Positions 12,005-45,141 of a DNA stretch of 64,000 nucleotides are shown here, one piece after another (within the stretch, counting starts at the first letter, position 1; the number at the start of each line of letters is the position of its first letter). Position numbers and translations under genes: made by a program. The DNA comes from an uncultured Bacillales bacterium. Lineage in GTDB: Bacteria > Bacillota_I > Bacilli_A > RF39 > UBA660. The notes beneath the pieces are model-generated. The model saw only the letters and a list, made by a program, of their open reading frames with translations, did no database searches and was not told the origin of the DNA. The stretch covers positions 333,484-397,483 of the forward strand of contig CAMNEE010000001.1 in the NCBI GenBank assembly GCA_946536225.1. The letters run 5' to 3'.

Positions 12005-14464
12005 ATGAATTATATTTTTATGTTAGGTAGCTGCCTTGTTTTTTCAATTATTTTAATTATTATTTTTAGACTAAAAACTCAAAAGTATGATGGAGAAACG
12101 CTTATTTATTCGATTCTTGGATTTGCCAATTGTATTGGTATTTCTTTTGAAATGGAATCTATTTATTTAAGTATTTATGAACCTAGTTCAATATTTTGTA
12201 GAATAGTTTTAAGACTTTATTTTAGTTATATAGTAATTTTTAATACTCTGTTATTATGTTATGTTTTTGATATTTACAAAACAGAGTTTAATTCTAAAAA
12301 ATACAGTATATTAAAATATCTTGTTGTATTTTTTTCATTTGGATTTATAGTTTTTAATTGCTTTTTACCATATGAATGCTTCCCTGGTTATGCTACAGGA
12401 ACTGCAGTTAAAGCTATTTATATTTATTCAGTTTTTTGTTTTGGCGCGTTACTTGTATCTATGGTTGTTAACAGAAAAAACTTAAGAATAAAAAAGATTT
12501 TCCCAATTTTATTTATGTCTTTTATTAAAGGATTACTTAGCCTTTTACAAAGAAATTATCCAGATATGACAATTTCAACTGCTGTAGATTTCCTTGTTGT
12601 ATTCTTGATGTTTCATACAATTGAAAATCCTGATTTAAGAATTGCTGAATTAGAAAAGAAAGCTGCTAGTGCTGCGGACAAAGCAAATAGAGCTAAAAGT
12701 GAATTCTTAAGTTCTATGTCACATGAAATAAGAACACCACTTAATGCTATTATTGGTTTTAGTGAGTTTATTTTAGAAACTGATGATATTAATGAAGCTC
12801 ACAATCAAGCTAAAGATGTTATTAATGCCTCTCAAATATTACTTGAGACAGTAAATGGAATACTAGATATTAGTAAAGTAGAAGCAGGTAAATTAGAAAT
12901 AGTAGAAGATAATTATAACTTAATGGAATTACTCGATAATACTGTTAAAATGGCTAAGGCTAGACTAGGGGACAAACCTCTAGACTTCAGAGTTCATTTT
13001 GCTCCTGATTTACCAGATTCATTATATGGTGATAAAGGTAATATTCAAAAGGTTCTTATTAACTTACTTACAAATGCTATTAAATATACTAATGAAGGTT
13101 ATATTGATTATTCAGTACAATGTACTAAAACTGATAATCATTGTAGATTAATAATAACTGTTAAAGACTCTGGTATTGGTATTAAGAAAGAAAATATTGA
13201 TAAGCTATTTACTAGATTTCAAAGATTTGATGAAAAGAATAATGGTACTATAGAAGGTACAGGATTAGGACTTGCTATTACTAAGCAATTAGTTGAGATG
13301 ATGGGCGGTAATATTGTTGTATCATCTATATATGGGGAAGGTTCAAACTTTACTGTTGCTTTAGATCAAAAGTTAAGTTTAACTCATGTTGCTCCTAAGA
13401 CTACTATTACTGATAGTCCAGTTGGAATTGACTTTAGTAATAAGAAAGTATTAGTAGTTGATGATAATAATTTAAATCTAAAATTAGCAGAAAGATTATT
13501 CTTAAAATATAATTGTCATATTAAAACAGTAAAAAGTGGTTTTGAATGTTTAGATTTAATAACTGCAGGTAATAAGTTTGATCTTATCTTCTTGGATGAT
13601 GTAATGCCTAAGATGCTTGGTAGTGAAACACTTGTTAGATTAAAGAAAACAGAAGGATTTAATACTCCTGTTGTTGCCTTAACTGCTAATGCTGTATCAG
13701 GTATGAGAGAAAAATATTTATTACTTGGTTTTGATGATTATTTAGCTAAACCAATTGAAAGAAATGAACTTGATATAATTCTTAAAAAATACTTATTAGA
13801 GAATGCTAAAGCTAAAGGATTAGGTGCTGAAGCACTTACTTCTAGTAAACCAATCGCTGTTATTGATCAAGGTGTTAAAGATGCAATTCTTTCAAGTCCT
13901 TCATCAAAAGATGTTGTATTAGCTGAAAAAGAAACAGTAAAAACAGTTATTAAAGAAAAAGCAAAAGAAGATACTCCTGTTACACCAAGTGTAACATCAA
14001 CTGAGATATCTTCAGTTGCTATTGCTCCTTTAACTCCTGTTAATAATGCACAAGCAAGTGAAGGTGGAAATGAAACATTTACAGATTATTCAAATAGAAG
14101 AATACTTGTAGTTGATGATAATAAATTAAATTTAAAAGTTGCTTTAAAATTCTTAAGTAGATATAAATTCCAAACTGATGAAGCTTATTCAGGACAAGAA
14201 TGTATTGATAAAGTTAAAGCTGGAAATCACTATGACATTATATTCATGGATATAATGATGCCTAATATGAGTGGTGTTGAAACATTCCATGAATTACAAA
14301 GAATTGAGGGATTTAGTGTTCCAGTTGTAGTAGCTTTAACTGCTGATGCAGTTGATGGAGCTCAAGAAAGATATTTAGGTGAAGGTTTTGCTGAATATAT
14401 TTCTAAACCTATAGTCAGAGAAAGACTTGATAAAGTTATTCACGAAATATTAGATAAGAAATAA
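12005..14464 (+). CDS. Hybrid sensor histidine kinase: multi-TM sensor, HisKA, HATPase_c, two receiver domains
   Basis: About 8 TM helices. H-box 'SMSHEIRTPLNAI', N box 'LLTNAIKYT', 'DSGIGI' and 'GTGLGL'. Receiver 1 has 'DLIFLDDVMP', 'ALTANA' and 'YLAKP'. Receiver 2 has 'DIIFMDIMMP', 'ALTADA' and 'YISKP'. No HPt domain. Confidence 0.8.
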   Translation: MNYIFMLGSCLVFSIILIIIFRLKTQKYDGETLIYSILGFANCIGISFEMESIYLSIYEPSSIFCRIVLRLYFSYIVIFNTLLLCYVFDIYKTEFNSKKYSILKYLVVFFSFGFIVFNCFLPYECFPGYATGTAVKAIYIYSVFCFGALLVSMVVNRKNLRIKKIFPILFMSFIKGLLSLLQRNYPDMTISTAVDFLVVFLMFHTIENPDLRIAELEKKAASAADKANRAKSEFLSSMSHEIRTPLNAIIGFSEFILETDDINEAHNQAKDVINASQILLETVNGILDISKVEAGKLEIVEDNYNLMELLDNTVKMAKARLGDKPLDFRVHFAPDLPDSLYGDKGNIQKVLINLLTNAIKYTNEGYIDYSVQCTKTDNHCRLIITVKDSGIGIKKENIDKLFTRFQRFDEKNNGTIEGTGLGLAITKQLVEMMGGNIVVSSIYGEGSNFTVALDQKLSLTHVAPKTTITDSPVGIDFSNKKVLVVDDNNLNLKLAERLFLKYNCHIKTVKSGFECLDLITAGNKFDLIFLDDVMPKMLGSETLVRLKKTEGFNTPVVALTANAVSGMREKYLLLGFDDYLAKPIERNELDIILKKYLLENAKAKGLGAEALTSSKPIAVIDQGVKDAILSSPSSKDVVLAEKETVKTVIKEKAKEDTPVTPSVTSTEISSVAIAPLTPVNNAQASEGGNETFTDYSNRRILVVDDNKLNLKVALKFLSRYKFQTDEAYSGQECIDKVKAGNHYDIIFMDIMMPNMSGVETFHELQRIEGFSVPVVVALTADAVDGAQERYLGEGFAEYISKPIVRERLDKVIHEILDKK

Positions 14465-34956: not shown

Positions 34957-35403
34957 ATGAGTTATATAGTTTTAAAAAATAAAAATGTATATGATATCAA
35001 TTATATGGAATATGACTTAGATGGTATGGTTATGCATCCTAAATTAAAGGGAAGTGCTTATATTCATGTAAGTGAAGCAAGATTCTATGATCAAGATATA
35101 ATAAAGAATATATGTCTTACTAAATTAAAAAAACAATTTGGTAGTTTAGTAAAAATAGTATTTAATTATTTAACTCAAGATGATGAAACTGCTGATGGAG
35201 GAGATTATATTATTCTTCTTGATGAAGTAGCTCATTTAAAAGCCCAATTAGAAATTAAGTATAAACGTTTCTTAGATAATGAAATGTATAGAGAATATAT
35301 GGATAAACTATACTTTTTAGATATAAATTTGAAAAATAAACTAGCTAGAGTTAACCTATATAGCCAAATAAGTGAACAACTTGGCGGAAAATTTACAAGA
35401 TAA
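34957..35403 (+). CDS. Hypothetical protein
   Basis: RBS GGGGGTAA. 148 aa. No motif. Confidence 0.4.
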   Translation: MSYIVLKNKNVYDINYMEYDLDGMVMHPKLKGSAYIHVSEARFYDQDIIKNICLTKLKKQFGSLVKIVFNYLTQDDETADGGDYIILLDEVAHLKAQLEIKYKRFLDNEMYREYMDKLYFLDINLKNKLARVNLYSQISEQLGGKFTR

Positions 35404-35404
35404 T

Positions 35405-35433
35405 AAACATTTTTTAAAAAAATGTTTATTTTT
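35405..35433 (+). terminator. Rho-independent terminator
   Basis: aaacatttttt / aaaaaatgttt hairpin followed by T-run. Confidence 0.55.
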
Positions 35434-35478
35434 TCTCTTTTGTGTGCTATAGTACAAGTAACAAAGGAGTGGTGTTTA

Positions 35479-35622
35479 TGAAGATAATTAAGTGGATAGT
35501 TGCCATTTTGATTGTATTGGGCATTGGATTTGCTATTTATGACTTCATTAGTTCTCAACATTTTGAGATAAATTCTGCTCAAATAATTGTTATCCTATTA
35601 ATGTATATCTTATTAAGTTAAT
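35479..35622 (+). CDS. Small membrane protein (47 aa), not in ORF track
   Basis: RBS AAAGGAGTGG 6 nt before ATG 35479. 'MKIIKWIVAILIVLGIGFAIYDFISS...' has one TM helix. Followed by the terminator at 35644-35668. Confidence 0.35.
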
Positions 35623-35643
35623 AGGTGATATAACACTTTAAAA

Positions 35644-35668
35644 GACATACCAAAAGGTATGTTTTTTA
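35644..35668 (+). terminator. Rho-independent terminator
   Basis: gacatacc-aaaa-ggtatgtt followed by T-run. Confidence 0.6.
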
Positions 35669-35704
35669 TTTTTTTAAAAAAATTTAATTTTTTAAAAAAA
35701 GTAG

Positions 35705-35743
35705 TTGACTTTTTTCTTTGTTATTAATAAAATGTTAATAACA
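35705..35743 (+). promoter_or_regulatory. Sigma-A-type promoter (TTGACT-17-TAAAAT) overlapped by a perfect 9-bp inverted repeat TGTTATTAA-N7-TTAATAACA; candidate NrtR operator 1
   Basis: -35 at 35705-35710 and -10 at 35728-35733. Inverted-repeat arms at 35719-35727 and 35735-35743, with the spacer covering the -10. Confidence 0.5.
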
Positions 35744-35772
35744 GATGAGGAAAACATTTGATTTATTTAAAT

Positions 35773-35789
35773 ATTTGTTATTAACAAAT
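35773..35789 (+). promoter_or_regulatory. Perfect 17-bp palindrome ATTTGTTA-T-TAACAAAT in the 5' leader; candidate operator 2
   Basis: Shares the TTGTTATTAA half-site with the promoter inverted repeat. Lies about 35-50 nt downstream of the predicted TSS. Confidence 0.45.
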
Positions 35790-35815
35790 TGATAATAAGA
35801 AAGAAGGAAGAAAAA

Positions 35816-36178
35816 ATGAAATTAACTTTAAATGAAAATCAAACTAAAGAATTAATCCAAAAATACTATAAGGAAGTAGAAGGGGTTGAAGTTAAAGTAC
35901 ATTTTGATACATATGAAGATTGCCAAAGTACATATGTTCAACCAGTTATATCTAAAGATATAGTAATAGCTGATATTAAAGTAACAGCTACTGAAGAAGT
36001 ATCAAACATGAAGATGACGGAAATATTTAATTTTTATTTACCAGCTGATTATAATTTTAAAAAATCATCTTTCAGTACCTACAGAGATTATGAAAGAATG
36101 GGTGACTATATAGAACGTGTAACTGCTTCAATAGAACTTGAACCTGTTGATCAAAAAACAAGAGGAAAACACATTTAA
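35816..36178 (+). CDS. Hypothetical protein, first gene of the NAD salvage operon
   Basis: RBS AGAAGGAAG 7 nt before ATG 35816. The track start at 35789 is a TTG inside the palindrome. 120 aa. Confidence 0.45.
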   Translation: MKLTLNENQTKELIQKYYKEVEGVEVKVHFDTYEDCQSTYVQPVISKDIVIADIKVTATEEVSNMKMTEIFNFYLPADYNFKKSSFSTYRDYERMGDYIERVTASIELEPVDQKTRGKHI

Positions 36179-36191
36179 TTTTTTATTTAAT

Positions 36192-36208
36192 ATTTGATAT
36201 TAACAAAA
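36192..36208 (+). promoter_or_regulatory. Imperfect copy of the palindrome (ATTTGATA-T-TAACAAAA) within a duplicated ~45-bp leader; candidate operator 3
   Basis: The 36183-36235 segment nearly repeats 35765-35815, including the RBS context ataataagaaagaaggaa. Confidence 0.35.
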
Positions 36209-36235
36209 TGATAATAAGAAAAAGAAGGAATAGTT

Positions 36236-36757
36236 ATGACAGAGGAATTCAAACAAGAAATTATAAAAGCAACAGAGTTTGCATTTGAAGAATCTTATAG
36301 AAAATCTTATGAAAATAGTAAAGCACTTTTAAGACCATATAAATTATTAGTTTTAGAAGCAATAAAAAGCTATAACTTTTTCACTGAAGAGTACGAAACT
36401 GAAACATTATTACAAAAGAAAGAGTTAGTCGGAACTCCAAGAGAAATAAAAATCTATAATGACACTTATGCTGAATTCAATAATCATTATGGAAAGATAT
36501 TTCTAAATTACAATTTAGGGTTTACTAATAGAGAAAGAATAGAACCTGACTTTATAGCAAATAGAACTTTTAAAGGAACAGTAATGAAACTATTCCTTGA
36601 AGAAGAAGGTATTAAAGTAGATTTTAAAGAACACAGTGATGAAGAATATGGTACTGATGAACAAGTTACTATTACATTTGATAATACAATACTACTAGAT
36701 TTAATAAAAAATACAGATGAAGCCGTAAAAAAGAAAAATAAAACTCAAAAGAAATAA
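36236..36757 (+). CDS. Hypothetical protein, second gene of the NAD salvage operon
   Basis: ATG after the duplicated leader. 173 aa. Confidence 0.45.
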   Translation: MTEEFKQEIIKATEFAFEESYRKSYENSKALLRPYKLLVLEAIKSYNFFTEEYETETLLQKKELVGTPREIKIYNDTYAEFNNHYGKIFLNYNLGFTNRERIEPDFIANRTFKGTVMKLFLEEEGIKVDFKEHSDEEYGTDEQVTITFDNTILLDLIKNTDEAVKKKNKTQKK

Positions 36758-36777
36758 TAAGAAAGAAGGAAGTAAAA

Positions 36778-37389
36778 ATGAAAAGAGAAGAAAAATTAAA
36801 AAACTTAAAAGAAATTAAAAATATGTTAGTCGTAATAGACATGGTAAAAGGATTTGTAGATGAAGGAACTTTAGCAGCACCTTCAATTAAAAGAGCAATA
36901 CCTAGACAAATAGAATTACTTGAAGAATATGGTAATGATCAAAATGGTTTAAATGTATTTGTTAGAGATACACATGATGAAGATAGTATTGAATTTAAAA
37001 CATTCCCACCTCATTGTTTAAGAGGTACAGCTGAAGTAGAAGTAACTGAAGAATTAAAACCTTATACAGAAGATGCAGTTGATTTTGAAAAGAATTCAAC
37101 AAACTTTATGTTAGCACCTAAAGTATTAGATTTCTTTAATGAATGTGAAAATCTAGAAAAGTTAGCATTCGTTGGATGCTTATCAGAAGTATGTGTTAAG
37201 AATGCAGCAATAACTGCTAGAAACTACTTCGATCAAGTGAATAGAGATGTAGAAGTTGGAGTATATACTGATGCAATTGATACATTTAATGCACCTGGAC
37301 ATGATGCAGATCTAGTAACAGAACAAGCTATTAAAGATATGGCTGCAAATGGAGTAAAAATTTATGAAAGAAAAAGAGGTAATAAATAA
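36778..37389 (+). CDS. pncA: Nicotinamidase (isochorismatase-family cysteine hydrolase)
   Basis: 'MLVVIDMVKGFVDEG' is the isochorismatase/PncA N-terminal motif. Cys is present in 'FVGCLSEVCV'. Adjacent to pncB. Confidence 0.7.
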   Translation: MKREEKLKNLKEIKNMLVVIDMVKGFVDEGTLAAPSIKRAIPRQIELLEEYGNDQNGLNVFVRDTHDEDSIEFKTFPPHCLRGTAEVEVTEELKPYTEDAVDFEKNSTNFMLAPKVLDFFNECENLEKLAFVGCLSEVCVKNAAITARNYFDQVNRDVEVGVYTDAIDTFNAPGHDADLVTEQAIKDMAANGVKIYERKRGNK

Positions 37390-38855
37390 TGATAACATTT
37401 AATGGACATGAAAGATTAAGTAGAAACTACACACTTATGAGTGATGAATATGAATTTACCATGGCAAATGGTTATTTAAATAACCATAAGGAAAATGAAG
37501 AAGCAGTATTTGATATCTTCTTTAGAAAGGTACCAAATCAAGGTGGATATGCTATCATGGCAGGACTTGATAAGGTAATTCCTTATATTGAAAATTTAAA
37601 ATTTGGTGAACAAGAATTAGATTACTTTAGAAGAAAAGGTTATCCAGAAGATTTTATTAATTACTTAAGAGATTTTAAATTTCATGGAGATATCTATGCA
37701 GTACCTGATGGAACACCAGTATTCCCAAATGAACCAATTGTTACTATTAAAGCTCCTTTAATTGAAGCTCAAATTGTTGAAACAGCACTTCTATCAATAG
37801 TAAACGGTGCTATGGAACATGCTACTGGTGCAAGAAGAATAATTGAAGCTGTACCTGAAGGTGTTGGTGTTATGGAATTTGGTGCAAGAAGAGCAGACGG
37901 AACTGAAGCAGCAATAGATGCATCTATATACGGAATCATGGCTGGATGTGTAGGAACAAGTAATATGTTAGCAGCTGATATGTTAAATATGAAAGGAATG
38001 GGTACTCAAGCTCATAGTTGGATTGAATCATATGAAACTGAGCTTGATGCATTTAAAGCATATGCTAGAACTTATCCAAATAACTGCATCTTACTAGTAG
38101 ATACAATTGATACTTTAAGAAGTGGTATTCCAAATGCAATTAAAACATTTAAATATATGAAAGAAATTGGATTACCTGTTGATCACATTGGTATAAGAAT
38201 TGATTCTGGTGATCTTGCTTATTTATCTAAAGAAACAAGAAAGATGTTAGATGAAGCAGGATTCCCACAAGCAAAAATTTGCTTAAGTAATGGTCTTACT
38301 GCTGAAACAATTGAAACACTTATCAACCAAGGTGCTAAATTTGATAGTTTAGGTGTAGGTGATAATATTTCTAAGCCAGAAGGAAGAATGGGATGTGTTT
38401 ATAAAGAAGTAGCACTTAATACAAATGGTACTTGGGAACCTAAAATTAAACTTAGTAACGATACTATTAAAATTGTTAATCCAGGATTTAAAAAACTTTA
38501 TAGAGCCTATGATAAAGAAACTGGATATGCAATTGCAGATATCATGGATTTATATGATAAAGATATTAAGAAACATGATTTAAATATAGTATCTGTAACA
38601 GATTATTTAAAACAAACTACAATTAATGATTTTGATTTAGTAGAGTTACAAAAACCAATCTTTAAAGATGGAGAACTTGTATATGATGATCCTGATATCA
38701 TGGGAAAAAGAGCATATTGCAATGAGCAAATGAAAACTTTATATCCAGAAGTTAAAAGAACAAATATGCCAAGTGAATACTATGTAGATGGCACAGAAGA
38801 ATATGTTAATTTCAAAAATGATTTAATTCAAAAAACAAGAAAAAGAGTTAAATAG
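37389..38855 (+). CDS. pncB: Nicotinate phosphoribosyltransferase
   Basis: 'YTLMSDEYEFTMANGYL' and 'GTQAHSWIESY'. 488 aa. ATGA overlap with pncA. Confidence 0.8.
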   Translation: MITFNGHERLSRNYTLMSDEYEFTMANGYLNNHKENEEAVFDIFFRKVPNQGGYAIMAGLDKVIPYIENLKFGEQELDYFRRKGYPEDFINYLRDFKFHGDIYAVPDGTPVFPNEPIVTIKAPLIEAQIVETALLSIVNGAMEHATGARRIIEAVPEGVGVMEFGARRADGTEAAIDASIYGIMAGCVGTSNMLAADMLNMKGMGTQAHSWIESYETELDAFKAYARTYPNNCILLVDTIDTLRSGIPNAIKTFKYMKEIGLPVDHIGIRIDSGDLAYLSKETRKMLDEAGFPQAKICLSNGLTAETIETLINQGAKFDSLGVGDNISKPEGRMGCVYKEVALNTNGTWEPKIKLSNDTIKIVNPGFKKLYRAYDKETGYAIADIMDLYDKDIKKHDLNIVSVTDYLKQTTINDFDLVELQKPIFKDGELVYDDPDIMGKRAYCNEQMKTLYPEVKRTNMPSEYYVDGTEEYVNFKNDLIQKTRKRVK

Positions 38856-38867
38856 GAGTGAATATAT

Positions 38868-39512
38868 ATGAGAGCAAAGATAATAGACACATATAATTAT
38901 TGTTCATCAACTAATAATAGAACTAATCTTTATAAGAAAGATACTTATACAGATAATGAACTATTAAAAACATTTGCTATAAGAAATAGATTACTAAACT
39001 TTATTCAAGTAGTAGAACATAGCATTGGACCAATACCATTACTTGAATCAACTGAAATATATGATTATATCGATAGAGATGCTTATCTAGGAATATTCTA
39101 TCTAGAAGGTATAGGTTATATTTCTAAAGGAAACTATGACAGAGATATTGTTGATGTATATCTATATGGTAAGTCTGAAGAAGAAGCATTTAAAACAGCA
39201 ATATATGAATATGTAATGAATGAATCTCATTACTACGAATTGTGGAATAGAGAAGAATTAAATAAAGAGTTTAGTAATAGATTCTTAAATGTTGAAGTTA
39301 ATGAAAATGATTATTTTGGACCTTTTATCTTTGCTGAACATTCACTTCAATTATTAAGAAACTTCTATGGTAATAATATACCAGAAGAATTTATAAATGA
39401 ATTTGAAGAATATGTAAAAGACATAACTCAAATGAATGTTAAGTTTAGTTATGAAACAAATAGATTTGAAAGTATAGAAAAAAATAAAGAAAGGAGAAAA
39501 ATAAATGGATAA
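38868..39512 (+). CDS. Hypothetical protein inside the NAD operon
   Basis: RBS AGGAGTGA. 214 aa. No P-loop or other recognisable motif. Confidence 0.45.
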   Translation: MRAKIIDTYNYCSSTNNRTNLYKKDTYTDNELLKTFAIRNRLLNFIQVVEHSIGPIPLLESTEIYDYIDRDAYLGIFYLEGIGYISKGNYDRDIVDVYLYGKSEEEAFKTAIYEYVMNESHYYELWNREELNKEFSNRFLNVEVNENDYFGPFIFAEHSLQLLRNFYGNNIPEEFINEFEEYVKDITQMNVKFSYETNRFESIEKNKERRKING

Positions 39513-40086
39513 TAAAAAGAAAGAATTAATAGATAAAATAATAGAAGAGTATAAACCTGTTAAAAGAGAAGAAGTTGAACCATCTTTCGTTAAAATAAAA
39601 GCTTATAACTATACTCTTAATAATGGGATGGTTCAAAAAAGAGAACAAATAATAAAAGGATCAAAAGATGGTTCTGCAGTAATAATAGTTCCTTATGTGG
39701 GTAATAACTTACTATTAGTAATTGAACCAAGAGTATTTACTAAAAAGGGTGTATGTGTAGGGTTTCCTGCAGGTTACATAGAAAAAGATGAAGATCCTAA
39801 AGATGCAGCTTTAAGAGAACTAAAAGAAGAAACTGGACTTGTTCCTGAAAGTATTGTTGAAGTAGATGCTTTTTATCAAGATGAAGGATGTTCAAGTGCA
39901 TATAATCATATCTTTATTGCTCATAATTGTAAAAAAGAATATGAACAAGATTTAGATCCAGGAGAATATATTAAATACATGGAATTCACATTAGAAGAAG
40001 CAGAAGAATTAGAGAGTGAAGGATATATTAATAGCTCTAACTGTAAGCTAGCACTAGTTAGAGCTAAAGAGCATAAAAGAAAATGA
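39505..40086 (+). CDS. NUDIX hydrolase (ADP-ribose / NAD-related pyrophosphatase candidate)
   Basis: Nudix box 'GYIEKDEDPKDAALRELKEETGL'. RBS AAAGGAG. Confidence 0.7.
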   Translation: MDNKKKELIDKIIEEYKPVKREEVEPSFVKIKAYNYTLNNGMVQKREQIIKGSKDGSAVIIVPYVGNNLLLVIEPRVFTKKGVCVGFPAGYIEKDEDPKDAALRELKEETGLVPESIVEVDAFYQDEGCSSAYNHIFIAHNCKKEYEQDLDPGEYIKYMEFTLEEAEELESEGYINSSNCKLALVRAKEHKRK

Positions 40087-40574
40087 AATATAAAATAGGC
40101 TTTTATGGAGGTAAGTTTATGCCTTTTCATAAAGGGCATAGATACTGTGTTGAAACAGCAGCAAGTGAATGCGAAAAAGTATATGTAATATTATTCTATG
40201 GTGGTAATGATGAAATAGAAATATTAAAGTATAATCATTCAAAATATTTATCTGTTGAGGAAAGAAAAAAGAAAGTAGTTGAACTAGCAAGTAATTATCC
40301 AAATGCTATACCTGTTTTTATAGATGTAACTGATTGTAAATTAAGTGACGGAAGTGAAGACTGGGATGCAGAAACACCATTAGTAAGAAATGTAGTAGGA
40401 CCTAAGTTAGATGCAGTATATTCAAGTGAAGAGAACTATGGAGAGTATTTCTCTAGAGCATATCCTGAAGCAATACATAGACTTGTGGATGTTAAAAGAA
40501 AACATTATCCAATAAGTGGAACAATGATAAGAAATATGAAAAGAAAAGAGGAAAGAGAAGAATGGATGGTCTAA
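40083..40574 (+). CDS. Stand-alone NadR/NadM-type NMN adenylyltransferase domain (no ribosylnicotinamide kinase domain)
   Basis: 'GFYGGKFMPFHKGH' is the (H/T)xGH nucleotidyltransferase motif in a NadR-like arrangement. 163 aa. ATGA overlap with the Nudix gene and overlap with pnuC. Confidence 0.6.
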   Translation: MKYKIGFYGGKFMPFHKGHRYCVETAASECEKVYVILFYGGNDEIEILKYNHSKYLSVEERKKKVVELASNYPNAIPVFIDVTDCKLSDGSEDWDAETPLVRNVVGPKLDAVYSSEENYGEYFSRAYPEAIHRLVDVKRKHYPISGTMIRNMKRKEEREEWMV

Positions 40575-41320
40575 AATTAAGATTTAATAAAAGAATAGAC
40601 AGTATAAAGAATTTAAAAAATAGTTTTAAAGAATTAAAGTGGTATGAAATTATAATGATAGTAATAATGGTATTTATAGCAGGACTTGCTGTATATAAAG
40701 CAATAACTAATCCAGCAAGTACTACTAATCCATTATGGTTAACAATAGTAAATTTTATTAGTGCGGTATGTGGTATTATTTGTATCTTCTTCTGTGCTAA
40801 AGCAAACGTATCTAATTTTATATTTGGACTTATAAATACAGTGGTATATGCTATATATTTATTGTATTATAAGATATATGGGACATTCTGCTTAGAAGTA
40901 TTATTTTACTTACCTATGAATGTTGCATCATGGATTAACTGGGCAAGACATAGAGATAAAGGATTACCAGAAAAAACAATGGCTAAAAAGTTAACTTTAA
41001 AACAAAGATTAATAAGTGTTGGAGTAGTTGCTATAACTACACTTGTAACTTATAAAATACTTTTATATGTAGGTGGAACAGTAGCATTCTTAGATGCTCT
41101 TACAGTAGCCATTGGTATTGTTGCAACTATATTAGAATTATATAGATATGCTGAACAATATATCTGGTGGATTATTACAGATGTAATTGCCGTTATCATG
41201 TATATAGTTCATTTTGATACAGTATATTTAACAAAGAAAACAATTTATTTAATCATGGCTATAATTGGTTTAAGAAATTGGATGAAGTTAAATAAAGAAA
41301 GGAATAAGAAAAATGTATAA
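40562..41320 (+). CDS. pnuC: Nicotinamide riboside transporter PnuC
   Basis: 252 aa with about 7 TM helices. 'WLTIVNFISAVCGIICIFFCAKANVSNFIFG' and a terminal 'LRNWMK' are PnuC-like. Confidence 0.65.
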   Translation: MDGLKLRFNKRIDSIKNLKNSFKELKWYEIIMIVIMVFIAGLAVYKAITNPASTTNPLWLTIVNFISAVCGIICIFFCAKANVSNFIFGLINTVVYAIYLLYYKIYGTFCLEVLFYLPMNVASWINWARHRDKGLPEKTMAKKLTLKQRLISVGVVAITTLVTYKILLYVGGTVAFLDALTVAIGIVATILELYRYAEQYIWWIITDVIAVIMYIVHFDTVYLTKKTIYLIMAIIGLRNWMKLNKERNKKNV

Positions 41321-42083
41321 TTTTGATGTTAAAAAAGTAAAAGAGGATTTAGTTAAATGGATCCAAGATTGGTTTTACAAAAACGGAGATGGATGTAATG
41401 CTGTAATTGGTATTTCAGGTGGAAAAGACTCAACTGTTACAGCAGCTCTTCTAGTAGAAGCATTAGGTAAAGAAAGAGTAGTTGGAGTATTAATGCCAAA
41501 TGGAGTACAAGCTGACATTGGAGACTCTAAAAAAGTAGTAGAATTTTTAGATATTAAAAATATTACTGTTAATATTAAAGATGCAGTAGAAGCAGAAAAG
41601 AAAAATGTAATTGAAGCATTAAAAACAATTGGTAAGGATGCTTTAACTGATCAAACAATTATTAATTTACCTCCAAGAATTAGAATGACTACTTTATATG
41701 CTGTAAGTCAAACAGTAAATGGAAGAGTAATTAATACATGTAATTTATCAGAAGATTGGGTAGGTTATTCAACTAGATATGGTGATTCAGCAGGAGATGT
41801 ATCTCCACTTGCTAAATTAACTGTTGATGAAGTTAAACAACTTGGTATAGAACTAGGTCTTCCTAGAGAATTAGTTTATAAAACTCCAAGTGATGGTTTA
41901 TGTGGTAAAACTGATGAAGATAATTTAGGATTTACATATGCTACTTTAGATAACTATTTAAGAACTGGTGTATGTGAAGATGAAAATATTAAAAATATAA
42001 TTAATAGAAAACATAAGATTAATAAGTTTAAATTAGAACTTATGCCTTCATTTGAATATGGTGAGGTAAAAGCAAAAGAATAG
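41313..42083 (+). CDS. nadE: NH3-dependent NAD+ synthetase
   Basis: PP-loop 'GISGGKDSTV'. 256 aa. Confidence 0.85.
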   Translation: MYNFDVKKVKEDLVKWIQDWFYKNGDGCNAVIGISGGKDSTVTAALLVEALGKERVVGVLMPNGVQADIGDSKKVVEFLDIKNITVNIKDAVEAEKKNVIEALKTIGKDALTDQTIINLPPRIRMTTLYAVSQTVNGRVINTCNLSEDWVGYSTRYGDSAGDVSPLAKLTVDEVKQLGIELGLPRELVYKTPSDGLCGKTDEDNLGFTYATLDNYLRTGVCEDENIKNIINRKHKINKFKLELMPSFEYGEVKAKE

Positions 42084-42092
42084 GTGATTAAT

Positions 42093-42644
42093 ATGAGATT
42101 AGGAGTTTATATTGGTTCTTTTAATCCAGTTCATAAAGGACATATAAAACTAGTAAACTATTTATTAGAAAATAATTATATAGATAAAGCACTAATAGTA
42201 CCTACATCAGGTTACTGGGATAAAACAAGTTTAGTAGATGTTGAAAAAAGAATTGATATGTTAAGTATTTTTGAAAACGAAACAATAGAAATTGATAGAA
42301 AACATAATAGTATTCTATATACTTATGAACTAATGAGAGAGTTATCAAAAGAATATACTGATGAGTTATATTTAATAATTGGTGCAGATAATATAATTAA
42401 CTTTGATAAATGGAAAAACTATGAAGAATTATTAAAATATAAAATAATAGTAATGAATAGAAATAGTATTGATATTGATTCATATATAACTAAATATAAT
42501 ACTCCTAATTTTATAGTTATTAATGACTTTGATTTTATAGATGTATCATCTACAGAAATTCGTAATAATTTAGATAATGAATATTTAGATAAAAGAGTAT
42601 TAGAATATATTAAAAATAATAATTTATATGAAAAGGAAGACTAA
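42093..42644 (+). CDS. nadD: Nicotinate-nucleotide adenylyltransferase
   Basis: 'GVYIGSFNPVHKGH'. ATG 42093 follows TAGGTGA; the track start at 42084 is GTG. Confidence 0.8.
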   Translation: MRLGVYIGSFNPVHKGHIKLVNYLLENNYIDKALIVPTSGYWDKTSLVDVEKRIDMLSIFENETIEIDRKHNSILYTYELMRELSKEYTDELYLIIGADNIINFDKWKNYEELLKYKIIVMNRNSIDIDSYITKYNTPNFIVINDFDFIDVSSTEIRNNLDNEYLDKRVLEYIKNNNLYEKED

Positions 42645-42645
42645 A

Positions 42646-43113
42646 ATGAAAGATGTTGTAAAAAAATTAAAAGAAAAAGGATTATATATAGCTACTATGG
42701 AATCTTGTACAGGTGGAGGTGTTGCAAATGCAATTACTAATATTCCAGGTGCAAGTGAAGTACTTTTATTTAGTGCTGTAACTTATTCTAATGAATATAA
42801 AATTAAAATGGGTGTTAGTAGTGAGACTATTGATAAATATAGTGTTTACTCTATTGAAGTAGCAAGAGAAATGAGTAAGAGCATAAGTGATTTTGCTCAC
42901 TCTGATATTGGAGTTGGAGTAACTGGAAAAATGGGTGTAGTGGATCCAGCTAATCCATATGGTGATGATAATACTATTTATGTAAGTATTTATGAGAAAA
43001 AGAATAAGCAATATCATGAAATAAAAATGCATACTAAATATGAAGATAGAAAAGATAATAAAGAACTTATTATTAAAAGAATCGAGGAAGAATTATTATC
43101 AATATTAAATTAG
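42646..43113 (+). CDS. pncC: NMN amidohydrolase PncC (CinA C-terminal domain)
   Basis: 'LYIATMESCTGGGVANAITNIPGAS' is the CinA_C/PncC signature. ATG 42646 is 7 nt after AAAGGAAG. Confidence 0.75.
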   Translation: MKDVVKKLKEKGLYIATMESCTGGGVANAITNIPGASEVLLFSAVTYSNEYKIKMGVSSETIDKYSVYSIEVAREMSKSISDFAHSDIGVGVTGKMGVVDPANPYGDDNTIYVSIYEKKNKQYHEIKMHTKYEDRKDNKELIIKRIEEELLSILN

Positions 43114-43148
43114 GACTAGTATGTTATAATTAGAATAGAGGTGTAGTT

Positions 43149-43976
43149 ATGAAAGAATATAAAAGTGAAGAAGAATTCTTAAAAGATTATAATCCTGATG
43201 AATTTAAAAAAGTATCTTTAACAACTGATATTTTAGTTTTAAGTGTATCAAGTAATGATTCAAATAATTATCGTAAAACTGATGATAAGAGTATGAGTGT
43301 ATTACTAGTTAAGAGAGATAATTATCCATTTAAAGATATGTGGTGTTTACCTGGAGGATTTGTTGGATATGATGAAGATTTAGATGAAGCACCTAAAAGA
43401 ATTTTAAAAAGAGAAACCAATTTAGATAATATTTATTTAGAACAATTATATACATTTGGTAATCCAAAAAGAGATCCAAGAATGCGTATTATTTCTACAT
43501 CATATATGTCTTTAATAGATAAGAATATGTTAACTGAGGTTTTAAATAAAAATGCTTCTTGGTTTGATATTACTCTTTTTGAAGAAAAGGATAATATAGT
43601 TACTATTGTCTTAGATAATGGATCTGATACTTTAAAATTTAGTATAAAGAAAGTATTAAAAGAAGAGACAACTGATAGATATTCGTTTGAAGTTGTTGAT
43701 AATAAATCAATAGCATTTGACCACCCACTTGTAATTCTTTCTGGTCTAGAACGTTTAAAAAATAAATTAGAATACACTGATATTGTATTTAATATGATGC
43801 CTAAGTATTTTACTTTAGGAGAACTTCAAAAAGTATATGAAGTAATACTAGGTAAAAAATTACTTGATCCAGCTTTTAGAAGAATTATTAAAGATAAGGT
43901 AAGTAAAACTAATAAAATGAAAACGGGTGAAGGACATAGACCATCTGTATTATTTGAATATAAAAACAATAAGTAG
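43149..43976 (+). CDS. nrtR: NrtR: Nudix-related transcriptional regulator of NAD metabolism (degenerate Nudix domain plus C-terminal winged helix)
   Basis: Nudix box 'GGFVGYDEDLDEAPKRILKRETNL' with the catalytic REx2EE degraded. The C-terminus 'FTLGELQKVYEVILGKKLLDPAFRRII...GHRPSVLFEY' matches the NrtR wHTH pattern. It sits inside the NAD cluster. Confidence 0.7.
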   Translation: MKEYKSEEEFLKDYNPDEFKKVSLTTDILVLSVSSNDSNNYRKTDDKSMSVLLVKRDNYPFKDMWCLPGGFVGYDEDLDEAPKRILKRETNLDNIYLEQLYTFGNPKRDPRMRIISTSYMSLIDKNMLTEVLNKNASWFDITLFEEKDNIVTIVLDNGSDTLKFSIKKVLKEETTDRYSFEVVDNKSIAFDHPLVILSGLERLKNKLEYTDIVFNMMPKYFTLGELQKVYEVILGKKLLDPAFRRIIKDKVSKTNKMKTGEGHRPSVLFEYKNNK

Positions 43977-43983
43977 GTAATAT

Positions 43984-45060
43984 ATGGAAAACTTAAAATT
44001 AATAGTTCTTGATAATATTCAAGAATTTGGTGAAAAAGTAGATAAGCATTTAATGAAGATGCATAAAACTGATAAGAGTTTTATTATTCCTATTACTAGA
44101 GATCGTTTTAATAATGGTGAAGGAAAAATTAAAATAAATGGTACTGTAAGAGATAAAGAAATATATATTCTAAGTGATGTAGGTAACTATGATATTACTT
44201 ATGAAATGCATGGATTTACTCATCATATGGCACCAGATGAACACTTTCAAGATATTAAAAGAGTTATATCTGCTATAAGTGGATATGCATCTAAAATAAC
44301 TTTAGTAATGCCTCTTTTATATGAAGCAAGACAACATAAGAGAAAAGGTAAAGAGTCTCTTGACTGTGCAATTGCTCTTCAAGAGTTAGAAAGATTAGGA
44401 GTAAATCATATTATTACATTTGATGCACATGATCCTAATGTATCTAATTCAATTCCTAATTTACCTTTTGAAAATTTCTATGTTGCTCATGATATATTAG
44501 AGTCTATTGTAAATACTGAAGAAATAGATAATTTACTTGTAATTAGTCCTGATATGGGAGCAATGGAGAGAGCAAGATACTATGCTGATATACTGGGAAC
44601 AGACGTTGGAGTATTTTATAAAAGACGTGATTTATCAAAAGTAGTAAATGGTAAAAATCCAATTGTAGAACATGTTTATTTAGGAAGAGATGTAAAGGGT
44701 ATGAACTGTTTAGTAGTAGATGATATGATTGCCAGTGGTTCATCAATGATAGAAACAGCATCTTACTTAAAAGAAAAGGGTGCAAATAAAGTATATTTGG
44801 TTTCTACATTTGCTCTTTTAACTGAAGGACCTGATAAGTTTATTAAAGCATATGATGAAGGAATATTTGATAAACTATATTCAACTAATCTATCTTATGT
44901 ATCAAATGATATTAAAGAAAAGAACTGGTATGTGGATGTAGATTGTTCAAAGAGGCTTGCAAATATTATTAATAAACTTAATAAAAAAGAATCATTAAAA
45001 ACTATTTTTGATGATGCAAAAGAAGTTTTAAAATTGATTAGTAAAAAGGAAGAAAAATAA
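43984..45060 (+). CDS. prs: Ribose-phosphate pyrophosphokinase (PRPP synthetase)
   Basis: PRPP-binding 'LVVDDMIASGSSM'. 358 aa. Last gene before the terminator. Confidence 0.75.
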   Translation: MENLKLIVLDNIQEFGEKVDKHLMKMHKTDKSFIIPITRDRFNNGEGKIKINGTVRDKEIYILSDVGNYDITYEMHGFTHHMAPDEHFQDIKRVISAISGYASKITLVMPLLYEARQHKRKGKESLDCAIALQELERLGVNHIITFDAHDPNVSNSIPNLPFENFYVAHDILESIVNTEEIDNLLVISPDMGAMERARYYADILGTDVGVFYKRRDLSKVVNGKNPIVEHVYLGRDVKGMNCLVVDDMIASGSSMIETASYLKEKGANKVYLVSTFALLTEGPDKFIKAYDEGIFDKLYSTNLSYVSNDIKEKNWYVDVDCSKRLANIINKLNKKESLKTIFDDAKEVLKLISKKEEK

Positions 45061-45085: not shown

Positions 45086-45141
45086 TTTACAAAATCTAAA
45101 GTTGTACATATAATAAACCTCAATTGAAGGAGGAAGATGTA

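Follow-up and report, generated by a model that had tools for sequence, protein, structure and literature searches.

The stretch of DNA analysed here, referred to as the window, comprises 64,000 nucleotides from an uncultured Bacillales bacterium (GTDB lineage Bacteria; Bacillota_I; Bacilli_A; RF39; UBA660), and corresponds to positions 333,484 to 397,483 of contig CAMNEE010000001.1 (GenBank assembly GCA_946536225.1). It contains a cluster of genes for nicotinamide adenine dinucleotide (NAD) metabolism, with three copies of a palindrome, here named O1, O2 and O3, at its head. An earlier note, made from the sequence alone, had proposed that these palindromes are operators for a regulator of the NrtR family. 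The cluster consists, in order, of orfA, orfB, pncA, pncB, a gene for an unknown 214-aa protein, a Nudix hydrolase gene, a gene for a nicotinamide mononucleotide (NMN) adenylyltransferase-like protein, pnuC, nadE, nadD, pncC (CinA), nrtR and prs. The positions of the features are listed in Table 1. The genes are tightly packed, abutting or overlapping, the + strand shows no terminator-like site from 36700 to 45060, and lon, which follows prs, has a promoter-like site of its own (45086-45114). For these reasons, the cluster appears to be a single 13-gene operon that includes the gene for its own regulator.

Table 1. Features of the NAD gene cluster and of its control region (positions are those of the window)
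Feature	Position	Strand	Description
Terminator-like hairpin and T run	35639-35668	+	Intrinsic-terminator-like; 13 pairs, then TTTTTTTAAA
A-tract	35693-35699	+	UP-element-like, upstream of the -35; read from sequence
-35 hexamer	35705-35710	+	TTGACT; sequence and promoter scan
O1	35719-35743	none	Perfect palindrome TGTTATTAA-TAAAATG-TTAATAACA; encloses the -10 and reaches the predicted transcription start; 33.5 bits
-10 hexamer	35728-35733	+	TAAAAT; operator positions 10-15; TATAAT in most orthologues
5' hairpin	35742-35760	+	CAGATG-AGGAAAA-CATTTG; minimum-energy fold; starts in the O1 right arm at the predicted mRNA 5' end
O2	35776-35800	none	TGTTATTAACAAATTGATAATAAGA; 2 mismatches; 30.0 bits; contains the 35773-35789 palindrome
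orfA	35816-36178	+	120 aa; no Pfam family; heads the operon
O3	36195-36219	none	TGATATTAACAAAATGATAATAAGA; 3 mismatches; 30.0 bits; in the orfA-orfB spacer
orfB	36236-36757	+	173 aa; no Pfam family; ATG at 36236
NAD genes	36778-43113	+	pncA to pncC, in the order given in the text; Pfam matches
Nudix hydrolase gene	39505-40086	+	Complete Nudix box, GYIEKDEDPKDAALRELKEETGL
NMN adenylyltransferase-like gene	40083-40574	+	NadR/NadM-type; 163 aa; cytidylyltransferase-like domain only
nrtR	43149-43976	+	275 aa; Nudix-like domain with degenerate box, and NrtR winged-helix domain; proposed binder of O1-O3
prs	43984-45060	+	Phosphoribosyl pyrophosphate synthetase; last gene of the cluster

The hairpin at 35639-35668 is the sole terminator-like site in 35300-36900, and probably ends the upstream transcription unit. 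Within the same interval, the TTGACT-17 bp-TAAAAT promoter pointed out in the earlier note is the best sigma-70-like match (10/12). This promoter is strong, and both its -10 and its predicted start site lie inside a perfect palindrome, two more copies of which are found in the transcribed region. The perfect 9-bp inverted repeat around the -10 was also correctly described in the note, and reads TGTTATTAA-N7-TTAATAACA at O1. The other two copies had been recorded in a different register. The 17-bp palindrome ATTTGTTATTAACAAAT (35773-35789) is indeed present and perfect, but it is not the unit that the copies share, as it is made up of the left half of O2 and flanks that are not conserved in orthologues. 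Similarly, the imperfect copy placed at 36192-36208, ahead of the second gene, exists, but the shared unit is longer and begins 3 bp further on. Aligned in one register and without gaps (TTTGTTATTAATAAAATGTTAATAACAGA, TTTGTTATTAACAAATTGATAATAAGAAA and TTTGATATTAACAAAATGATAATAAGAAA), the three copies have in common a 25-bp palindrome of the form 9-N7-9, with 0 mismatches at 35719, 2 at 35776 and 3 at 36195. O2 is located 57 bp after O1 and ends a few bases before the Shine-Dalgarno sequence of orfA, and O3 directly precedes that of orfB.

Chance does not explain the three copies. When up to 3 mismatches were allowed, O1-O3 were the only 9-N7-9 matches in the 64 kb, where 0.93 were expected, and 3 matches were reached in 5 of 100 shuffled windows. 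A degenerate 25-nt consensus matched the window 4 times (0.04 expected). With a weight matrix trained on the orthologous sites from other genomes, from which the sites of the window itself were excluded, O1 scored 33.5 bits and O2 and O3 each scored 30.0 bits, while the next best position in the 64 kb scored 5.9 bits and the maximum in shuffled windows was 12.2 bits.

The regulator gene in the cluster, nrtR, encodes a protein with a PF00293 (NUDIX) domain at residues 47-130 (E 2.3e-10) and a PF21906 (winged-helix) domain at residues 213-270 (E 1.6e-15). It matches solved proteins of the NrtR family, namely the Bacteroides thetaiotaomicron arabinose regulator AraR (BtAraR; 5bs6, E 8.7e-30), 2fml (E 1.3e-23, over the full length) and Shewanella NrtR (3gz5, E 1.4e-23). 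In its Nudix box, read from the translation as G-x5-E-x7-RILKRETNL, three residues of the REUxEExGU signature are replaced, and the domain is predicted to be a non-catalytic sensor, as in most characterised NrtRs. The operon thus encodes two Nudix proteins, NrtR and the product of the gene at 39505-40086, in which the catalytic box is complete and which is likely to be an ADP-ribose pyrophosphatase, as judged from its sequence. Autoregulation of nrtR is predicted by position only, as the gene lies downstream of O1-O3 with no intervening terminator.

In order to follow the motif in related organisms, species-representative genomes were scanned with the NrtR protein. The 80 loci obtained show 65-93 % identity, and each comes from an uncultured member of the gut or rumen Bacilli or from a metagenome-assembled genome labelled 'Tenericutes'; the NAD genes in them were mapped by tblastn. 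About 160 matches to the 9-N7-9 motif (up to 3 mismatches) were found in these 1.27 Mb; for 154 of them, a mapped NAD gene followed no more than 700 bp downstream, and no match fell inside such a gene. The gene downstream was pncA (80), prs (27), pncB (15), nrtR (9), nudix (8), nadD (5), nadE (4), pncC (4) or orfA (2). Gene order varies widely among the loci, and the motif moves with the NAD genes. In three loci (L008-L010; fetched loci are identified by L numbers), nrtR is the leading gene, with the sites in the interval between nrtR and pncA; other loci have the sites upstream of prs (L022, L031, L034 and L038) or of nadD (L020 and L074). The association of nrtR with genes of NAD metabolism holds by position in the window and in the 80 species. 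The proposal of the earlier note that the palindromes are NrtR operators gains support from the sequences, given that an nrtR gene is in the same cluster and that the motif precedes NAD genes in 80 species.

In the reverse direction, metagenome contigs were searched with the exact promoter-type 25-mer TGTTATTAATATAATGTTAATAACA alone. This recovered 109 exact copies in 108 metagenome stretches, and for 105 of the 109 TTGACA or TTGACT was found at the fixed distance. Among the 103 copies with enough downstream sequence, 81 had the start of an NAD gene within 250 bp, namely pncA (68), NMN adenylyltransferase-pnuC (7), prs (2), nadD (2), nadE (1) or the gene for the 214-aa unknown protein (1). Of the remaining 22, 13 preceded a small orfA-like gene that was followed by pncA or prs, and four preceded other NAD genes, i.e. 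pncB (1), a NAD kinase gene (PF01513/PF20143; 1) and glutamine-dependent NAD synthetase genes (2). The others were a radical S-adenosylmethionine (SAM) gene followed by NAD synthase (1), a cluster of a radical SAM-Nudix fusion, a methyltransferase and PnuC (1), a P-loop kinase gene (1), a gene for a Cys/Ser-rich peptide with a radical SAM enzyme (1), and AAA_5 and DUF7192 genes before pncA (1). Where the operon was fully covered, nrtR was in the same stretch in most cases. Since a search with the motif alone recovered NAD genes almost exclusively, the motif can be taken as the mark of an NAD regulon.

The consensus of the operator in this lineage is TGTTATTAAC-AAAAT-GTTAATAACA, and the sites fall into two classes. 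Promoter-type sites, the class to which O1 belongs (65 instances), read AAAAA-N2-gTTGACAA-N8-TGTTaTTAATAtAATGTTAATAACA; TTGACA or TTGACT is separated from the operator by exactly 8 bp, operator positions 10-15 are taken up by the -10, the right arm is near-invariant from G16 to A25, and the AAAAA upstream of the -35 is retained in the logo of these sites. In O1, the central yAAAAT of the operator is replaced by the -10 itself. Leader-type sites, to which O2 belongs (93 instances), read TTTTaa-N4-TGtTATTAAcAAAatGtTAAtAAgA. A Shine-Dalgarno-like sequence follows within 0-8 nt in 50 of 94 of them, and the commonest distance to an ATG is 13-14 nt. They are asymmetric, in that G rather than C is found at position 24. 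Position 10 is mostly C in leader-type sites, where it is the symmetric partner of G16, and T in promoter-type sites because the -10 needs a T there. A T-run, aaTTTTtAA (positions -9 to -4), is present before nearly all leader-type sites, for example at 35762-35772 and 36181-36191, and is absent from promoter-type sites. Successive sites are 54-58 bp apart (mode 55), and the distance between O1 and O2 is inside this peak. An internal promoter in the leader-type sites (TTAATA-17-GATAAT at 36187-36215, 9/12) was considered and rejected as a general feature, as its -10-like letters are not conserved and A17 is present in only about one third of the sites.

In general, regulated genes start with a cassette of about 55 bp, made up of the T-run, the 25-bp site and the Shine-Dalgarno sequence, and this is repeated two to four times at 54-58 bp. 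In the window, the leader cassette at 35736-35818 can be aligned over its whole length with that at 36150-36238 (83 % column identity), and O2 and O3 belong to this duplicated leader. The duplicated part includes a purine-rich segment, the T-rich run, the operator and the Shine-Dalgarno sequence, and the second copy starts within orfA, at its 3' end, which suggests an insertion of genes at the head of the operon together with a copy of the leader.

These features raise the question of whether the cassettes (O2 and O3 with the adjoining sequence) function at the RNA level, as a riboswitch or as an element to which a protein binds to control translation, so that their likeness to O1 would be secondary. 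The adjacency to the Shine-Dalgarno sequence, the conserved T-run, the asymmetry at position 24 and the duplication of a whole cassette of about 85 bp, which goes beyond the palindrome, would all fit. However, a search of 35300-36900 against Rfam, including the NAD riboswitch families, at E values up to 10 gave chance-level matches only, none of them near the gathering score. Folding was no better than that of shuffled sequences (the leader had a z of -1.1 and the orfA-orfB spacer one of +0.97), and the putative stem lacks compensatory changes: a change of T3 to A, seen in 21 of 78 sites, is never accompanied by the change at A9 that an RNA stem would require. The same 25-bp motif is also found at O1, most of which lies upstream of the transcription start. 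This motif has a two-fold symmetry that extends to the C10/G16 pair, and C10 yields to T only where the -10 requires it, a pattern that resembles recognition of DNA by a protein. We therefore regard an action of the cassettes purely as RNA as very unlikely.

A separate RNA feature is the hairpin at the 5' end of the transcript (Table 1). About 46 of 64 orthologous promoters have a hairpin there, beginning at the ACA of the operator right arm. The letters of the stem vary on both sides while pairing is kept (GAT/ATC, AGT/ACT, AGAG/CTCT and AGC/GCT). RNAalifold predicted nothing for 40 segments that follow O1; the MAFFT alignment used had placed the stems out of register. In a direct search for stems, at least 6 pairs were found in 35 of 64 orthologues, against 17 on average and never more than 28 when 200 chimera controls were run. 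The hairpin may be a 5'-terminal stabiliser.

Each half of the operator is itself a small palindrome, TGTTA-W-TAACA, and two other regulators had to be considered on account of these letters. The first is the redox sensor Rex, whose operator is an 18-bp inverted repeat with 7-bp half-sites and a 4-bp spacer, TTGTGAA-N4-TTCACAA; in Clostridia it reads TTGTTAA-N4-TTAACAA, to which the present half-sites are similar in their letters (TGTTA/TAACA). In addition, pncB has been reported in the Rex regulon of Streptococcus pneumoniae (PMC6018154). The geometry does not agree, as the best match to TTGTTAA-N4-TTAACAA within the sites has 3 mismatches in 14 positions, and 42 matches with up to 3 mismatches are present in the window. 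Neither the window nor the 188 fetched loci revealed a Rex-like gene when searched with a Rex query sequence, and the genes behind the motif are those of NAD synthesis and salvage, not of fermentation. We consider Rex hardly credible as the regulator of these sites.

The second is the niacin-responsive repressor NiaR, which besides NrtR regulates NAD metabolism in Firmicutes, and whose gene would have to lie at another place in the genome. In some Firmicutes pncAB is under NiaR control, and the core of the NiaR type I motif is TGT...ACA (PMC2330245); each 11-bp box of the operator described here reads TGT-N5-ACA. However, the type I site is a single 22-bp imperfect repeat with the core TGT-N4-ACA, e.g. 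TTTATTGTCTTGTCAATAAA (PMC2330245), while the present sites have two boxes 14 bp apart, an N5 spacer and a different centre. In the loci, which are what the search covered, no niaR gene was found beside any site, and it is nrtR that is in the operon or directly behind the motif. Control by NiaR is accordingly most improbable.

Two loci bear on the size of the unit recognised. In L055 (7330-7368 and 10937-10975) and L078 (10544-10582), two 25-bp sites share 11 bp, so that a single promoter is followed by three 11-bp boxes (TGTTnTTAAyA) spaced at 14-bp steps. This overlap hints that the 11-bp box may be the structural recognition unit. As an independent operator, a box TGTTA-W-TAACA would have half-sites 6 bp apart, which is ill-suited to a winged-helix dimer, and a solved relative covers 25 bp.

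It is also conceivable that a DNA-binding protein other than NrtR recognises the motif, with NrtR acting elsewhere or not at all. Co-localisation is what connects NrtR to the sites, and the motif lacks the GT-N7-AC core of published NrtR operators. Nevertheless, the loci have no regulator-like gene in common other than nrtR, and orfA-like genes amount to only 43 open reading frames (ORFs) in 188 loci. The motif precedes nrtR where nrtR heads an operon; in L076, a module of promoter, O1 and O2 stands directly before nrtR at the head of a different operon. The winged-helix domain is the most conserved part of NrtR in 81 orthologues (mean top-residue frequency of 0.88 versus 0.67-0.75 elsewhere), with KKLLDPAFRRII near-invariant, and a near-invariant operator is thus matched by a near-invariant DNA-binding domain. 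Another binder is, in our view, a very slim prospect.

The enterobacterial NadR repressor has a helix-turn-helix (HTH) domain at its N terminus and the operator TGTTTA-N6-TAAACA (PMC2330246). It was rejected as a candidate, as the product of 40083-40574 has no HTH domain and the operator geometry is different.

Among the systems most similar to the one described here is that of Rodionov et al. 2008 (PMC2330246), in which a regulator with Nudix and winged-helix domains is encoded within the NAD salvage cluster that it regulates, with pncA, pncB, nadD and nadE among the targets. In both cases, palindromes are found at the head of the operon and before an internal gene; in Clostridium acetobutylicum, for example, NrtR sites precede nrtR-pncA and again pncB. 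NrtR sites overlap promoters or sit between the promoter and the start codon (PMC2330246), and the arrangement in the window, with one site over the -10 and others downstream, which the earlier note had called a repression geometry, agrees with this. The differences are that most published NrtR motifs are 21-bp palindromes with a GT-N7-AC core (PMC2330246), whereas the conserved unit here is 25 bp and has no such core; that nrtR is not the first gene but lies near the operon's end; that the regulon is larger, including also pnuC, the NMN adenylyltransferase-like gene, pncC, the Nudix hydrolase gene and prs; and that there are two to four sites at a spacing of about 55 bp.

The NrtR proteins of Shewanella oneidensis and Synechocystis (PMC2330246) share with the present one their architecture and a degenerate Nudix box, and control of prs, predicted here, is a further likeness. 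Those proteins were validated by electrophoretic mobility shift assay and are released by ADP-ribose, while the present NrtR is known from its sequence; the motifs differ and the similarity is distant (to 3gz5, see above). In those organisms ADP-ribose is a signal of NAD consumption, and by analogy the same logic would apply here. Release by ADP-ribose has been reported for the Shewanella, Synechocystis, Streptococcus suis and Mycobacterium smegmatis proteins (PMC2330246, PMC6800001).

The operator of M. smegmatis NrtR, GTTTTCGA-N7-TCGAAAAC (PMC6800001), has the same 9-N7-9 geometry, with palindromic arms around N7, and the Streptococcus motif, ATA-N-TTTA-N3-TAAAA-N2-ATA (PMC6800001), is similarly AT-rich. 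Autoregulation is a feature common to these two systems and the one predicted here, and in both antagonism by ADP-ribose has been reported (PMC6800001). Unlike here, the targets of the Mycobacterium protein are the de novo genes nadABC. The best solved relative is BtAraR, for which DNA complexes are available (5bs6/5dd4). BtAraR places its helix-turn-helix into the major groove of the DNA and its wing into the minor groove; its dimer extends over 25 bp, and a promoter that has two sites is occupied by two dimers (PMC4666351). The cover of 25 bp is equal to the length of the operator found here. However, the effector of BtAraR is L-arabinose, its targets are sugar genes, it recognises GTGT, and its base-contacting residues K179, R180, N181 and K184 align with D, P, A and R in the present protein.

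Taken together, O1-O3 are, with high probability, operators of the NrtR encoded at 43149-43976 and control one transcription unit of 13 genes. NrtR would be both the binder and a repressor, and its effector would, by analogy with the characterised proteins, be ADP-ribose. An NrtR dimer on O1, which includes the -10 and the transcription start, would block RNA polymerase or the formation of the open complex. O2 and O3, which are weaker sites with a degenerate promoter-distal arm, may be auxiliary or roadblock sites, possibly cooperative with O1. ADP-ribose, a breakdown product of NAD, would bind to the catalytically dead Nudix domain and release the repressor, and consumption of NAD would in this way switch on salvage, uptake, recycling of ADP-ribose (via the Nudix hydrolase and Prs) and nrtR itself. 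The Nudix hydrolase would convert ADP-ribose to ribose 5-phosphate, from which Prs would make phosphoribosyl pyrophosphate (PRPP), the substrate used by PncB. The content of the regulon fits a control by ADP-ribose, since the Nudix hydrolase, Prs and PncB would form a recycling route. An enzyme that destroys the presumed effector would thus be under the control of that effector.

Several points weigh against this interpretation. Both the binding of NrtR to O1-O3 and its effect on expression are predictions. The published core GT-N7-AC, agreement with which the earlier note had left unverified, is absent in every register of the 25-bp consensus, the equivalent positions being AA-N7-TT, and the letters differ throughout from those of the Mycobacterium and Streptococcus motifs. 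As NrtR motifs are known to vary between lineages, with some groups diverging (PMC2330246), the missing core weakens only the assignment to the family by sequence. A full-text search of the literature with the letters of the motif found no relevant paper. As the loci of the first set had been selected for having nrtR, co-occurrence in them was partly built in, and among the loci found with the motif, L084, L103 and L125 show no nrtR in more than 10 kb of sequence each. These three are compatible with a regulator encoded elsewhere, and are no proof of one. As to the effector, the Corynebacterium protein NdnR was reported to respond to NAD and not to ADP-ribose (PMC6800001). Finally, leader-type sites almost always abut a Shine-Dalgarno sequence and have the conserved T-run upstream, neither of which is explained by a simple roadblock on DNA, and the spacing of 54-58 bp is a non-integral number of helical turns.

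It is conceivable that the leader-type cassettes are more than auxiliary operators, either through nucleating a higher-order assembly of NrtR along the leader or through a dual action on DNA and RNA, so that control would be exerted gene by gene within one operon, and that orfA encodes a partner of PncA. We consider this version unlikely. In it, the orfA family would be an unrecognised nicotinamidase partner, as its genes are always first behind the operator and its members are sometimes fused to PncA. The family is small and evolves fast. Its members have 120-140 aa and an N-terminal motif like I-x-KYYKE-x-x-G, and no Pfam family and only 19 cluster representatives in 1.84 billion proteins were found for orfA. 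The AlphaFold2 model of orfA is confident, with a predicted local distance difference test (pLDDT) score of 84 and a predicted template modelling (pTM) score of 0.74, and Foldseek gave no match to it in the PDB below E 0.04. Genes of this type are directly behind the NrtR-type promoter, sometimes as tandem paralogues, and were seen in the window and in L088, L094, L097, L129, L132, L137, L154, L161, L175, L177, L179, L180 and L187. In L088, L097 and L177, a similar N-terminal region is apparently fused to PncA, in proteins of about 304 aa.

No relative of orfB was found among the ORFs of the 188 fetched loci, and the 214-aa protein (38868-39512, between pncB and the Nudix hydrolase gene), which has no Pfam family, has relatives only in L001, L002 and L099.

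Some of the loci carry additional genes under the same operator. A conserved cluster in L076 (10893-14440) and L143 (2361-3608 on the reverse strand, and downstream) encodes a radical SAM-Nudix fusion (414-415 aa), a protein of about 265 aa that resembles methyltransferases, and a transporter of the PnuC family. In L076, the transporter is fused to a further domain and nrtR heads the cluster. This may be an uncharacterised nucleoside or NAD-related pathway. In L084, on the reverse strand, an exact NrtR-type promoter/operator is followed by a gene for a 153-aa protein with a Cys/Ser-rich C-terminal tail (13013-13474) and by one for a radical SAM enzyme (12108-13019), with no NAD gene within 13 kb; the pair looks like a peptide-modification system. 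In L174 (4656-7287), genes for an AAA_5 ATPase (581 aa) and a DUF7192 protein (293 aa) are located between the NrtR-type promoter and pncA.

O1-O3 are most likely a previously undescribed, lineage-specific case of the known NrtR regulatory system in uncultured gut and rumen Bacilli, and the understanding of NrtR regulation as such is unchanged by this finding. What it provides is a definition of the operator and of the likely NrtR regulon in uncultured Bacilli of the gut and rumen, a large group with small genomes. With a motif this sharp, whole genomes of these organisms can be probed for genes related to NAD, and the motif already points to candidates that homology alone would not link to NAD, namely the orfA family, the radical SAM-Nudix fusion with its methyltransferase and PnuC fusion, and the P-loop kinase.

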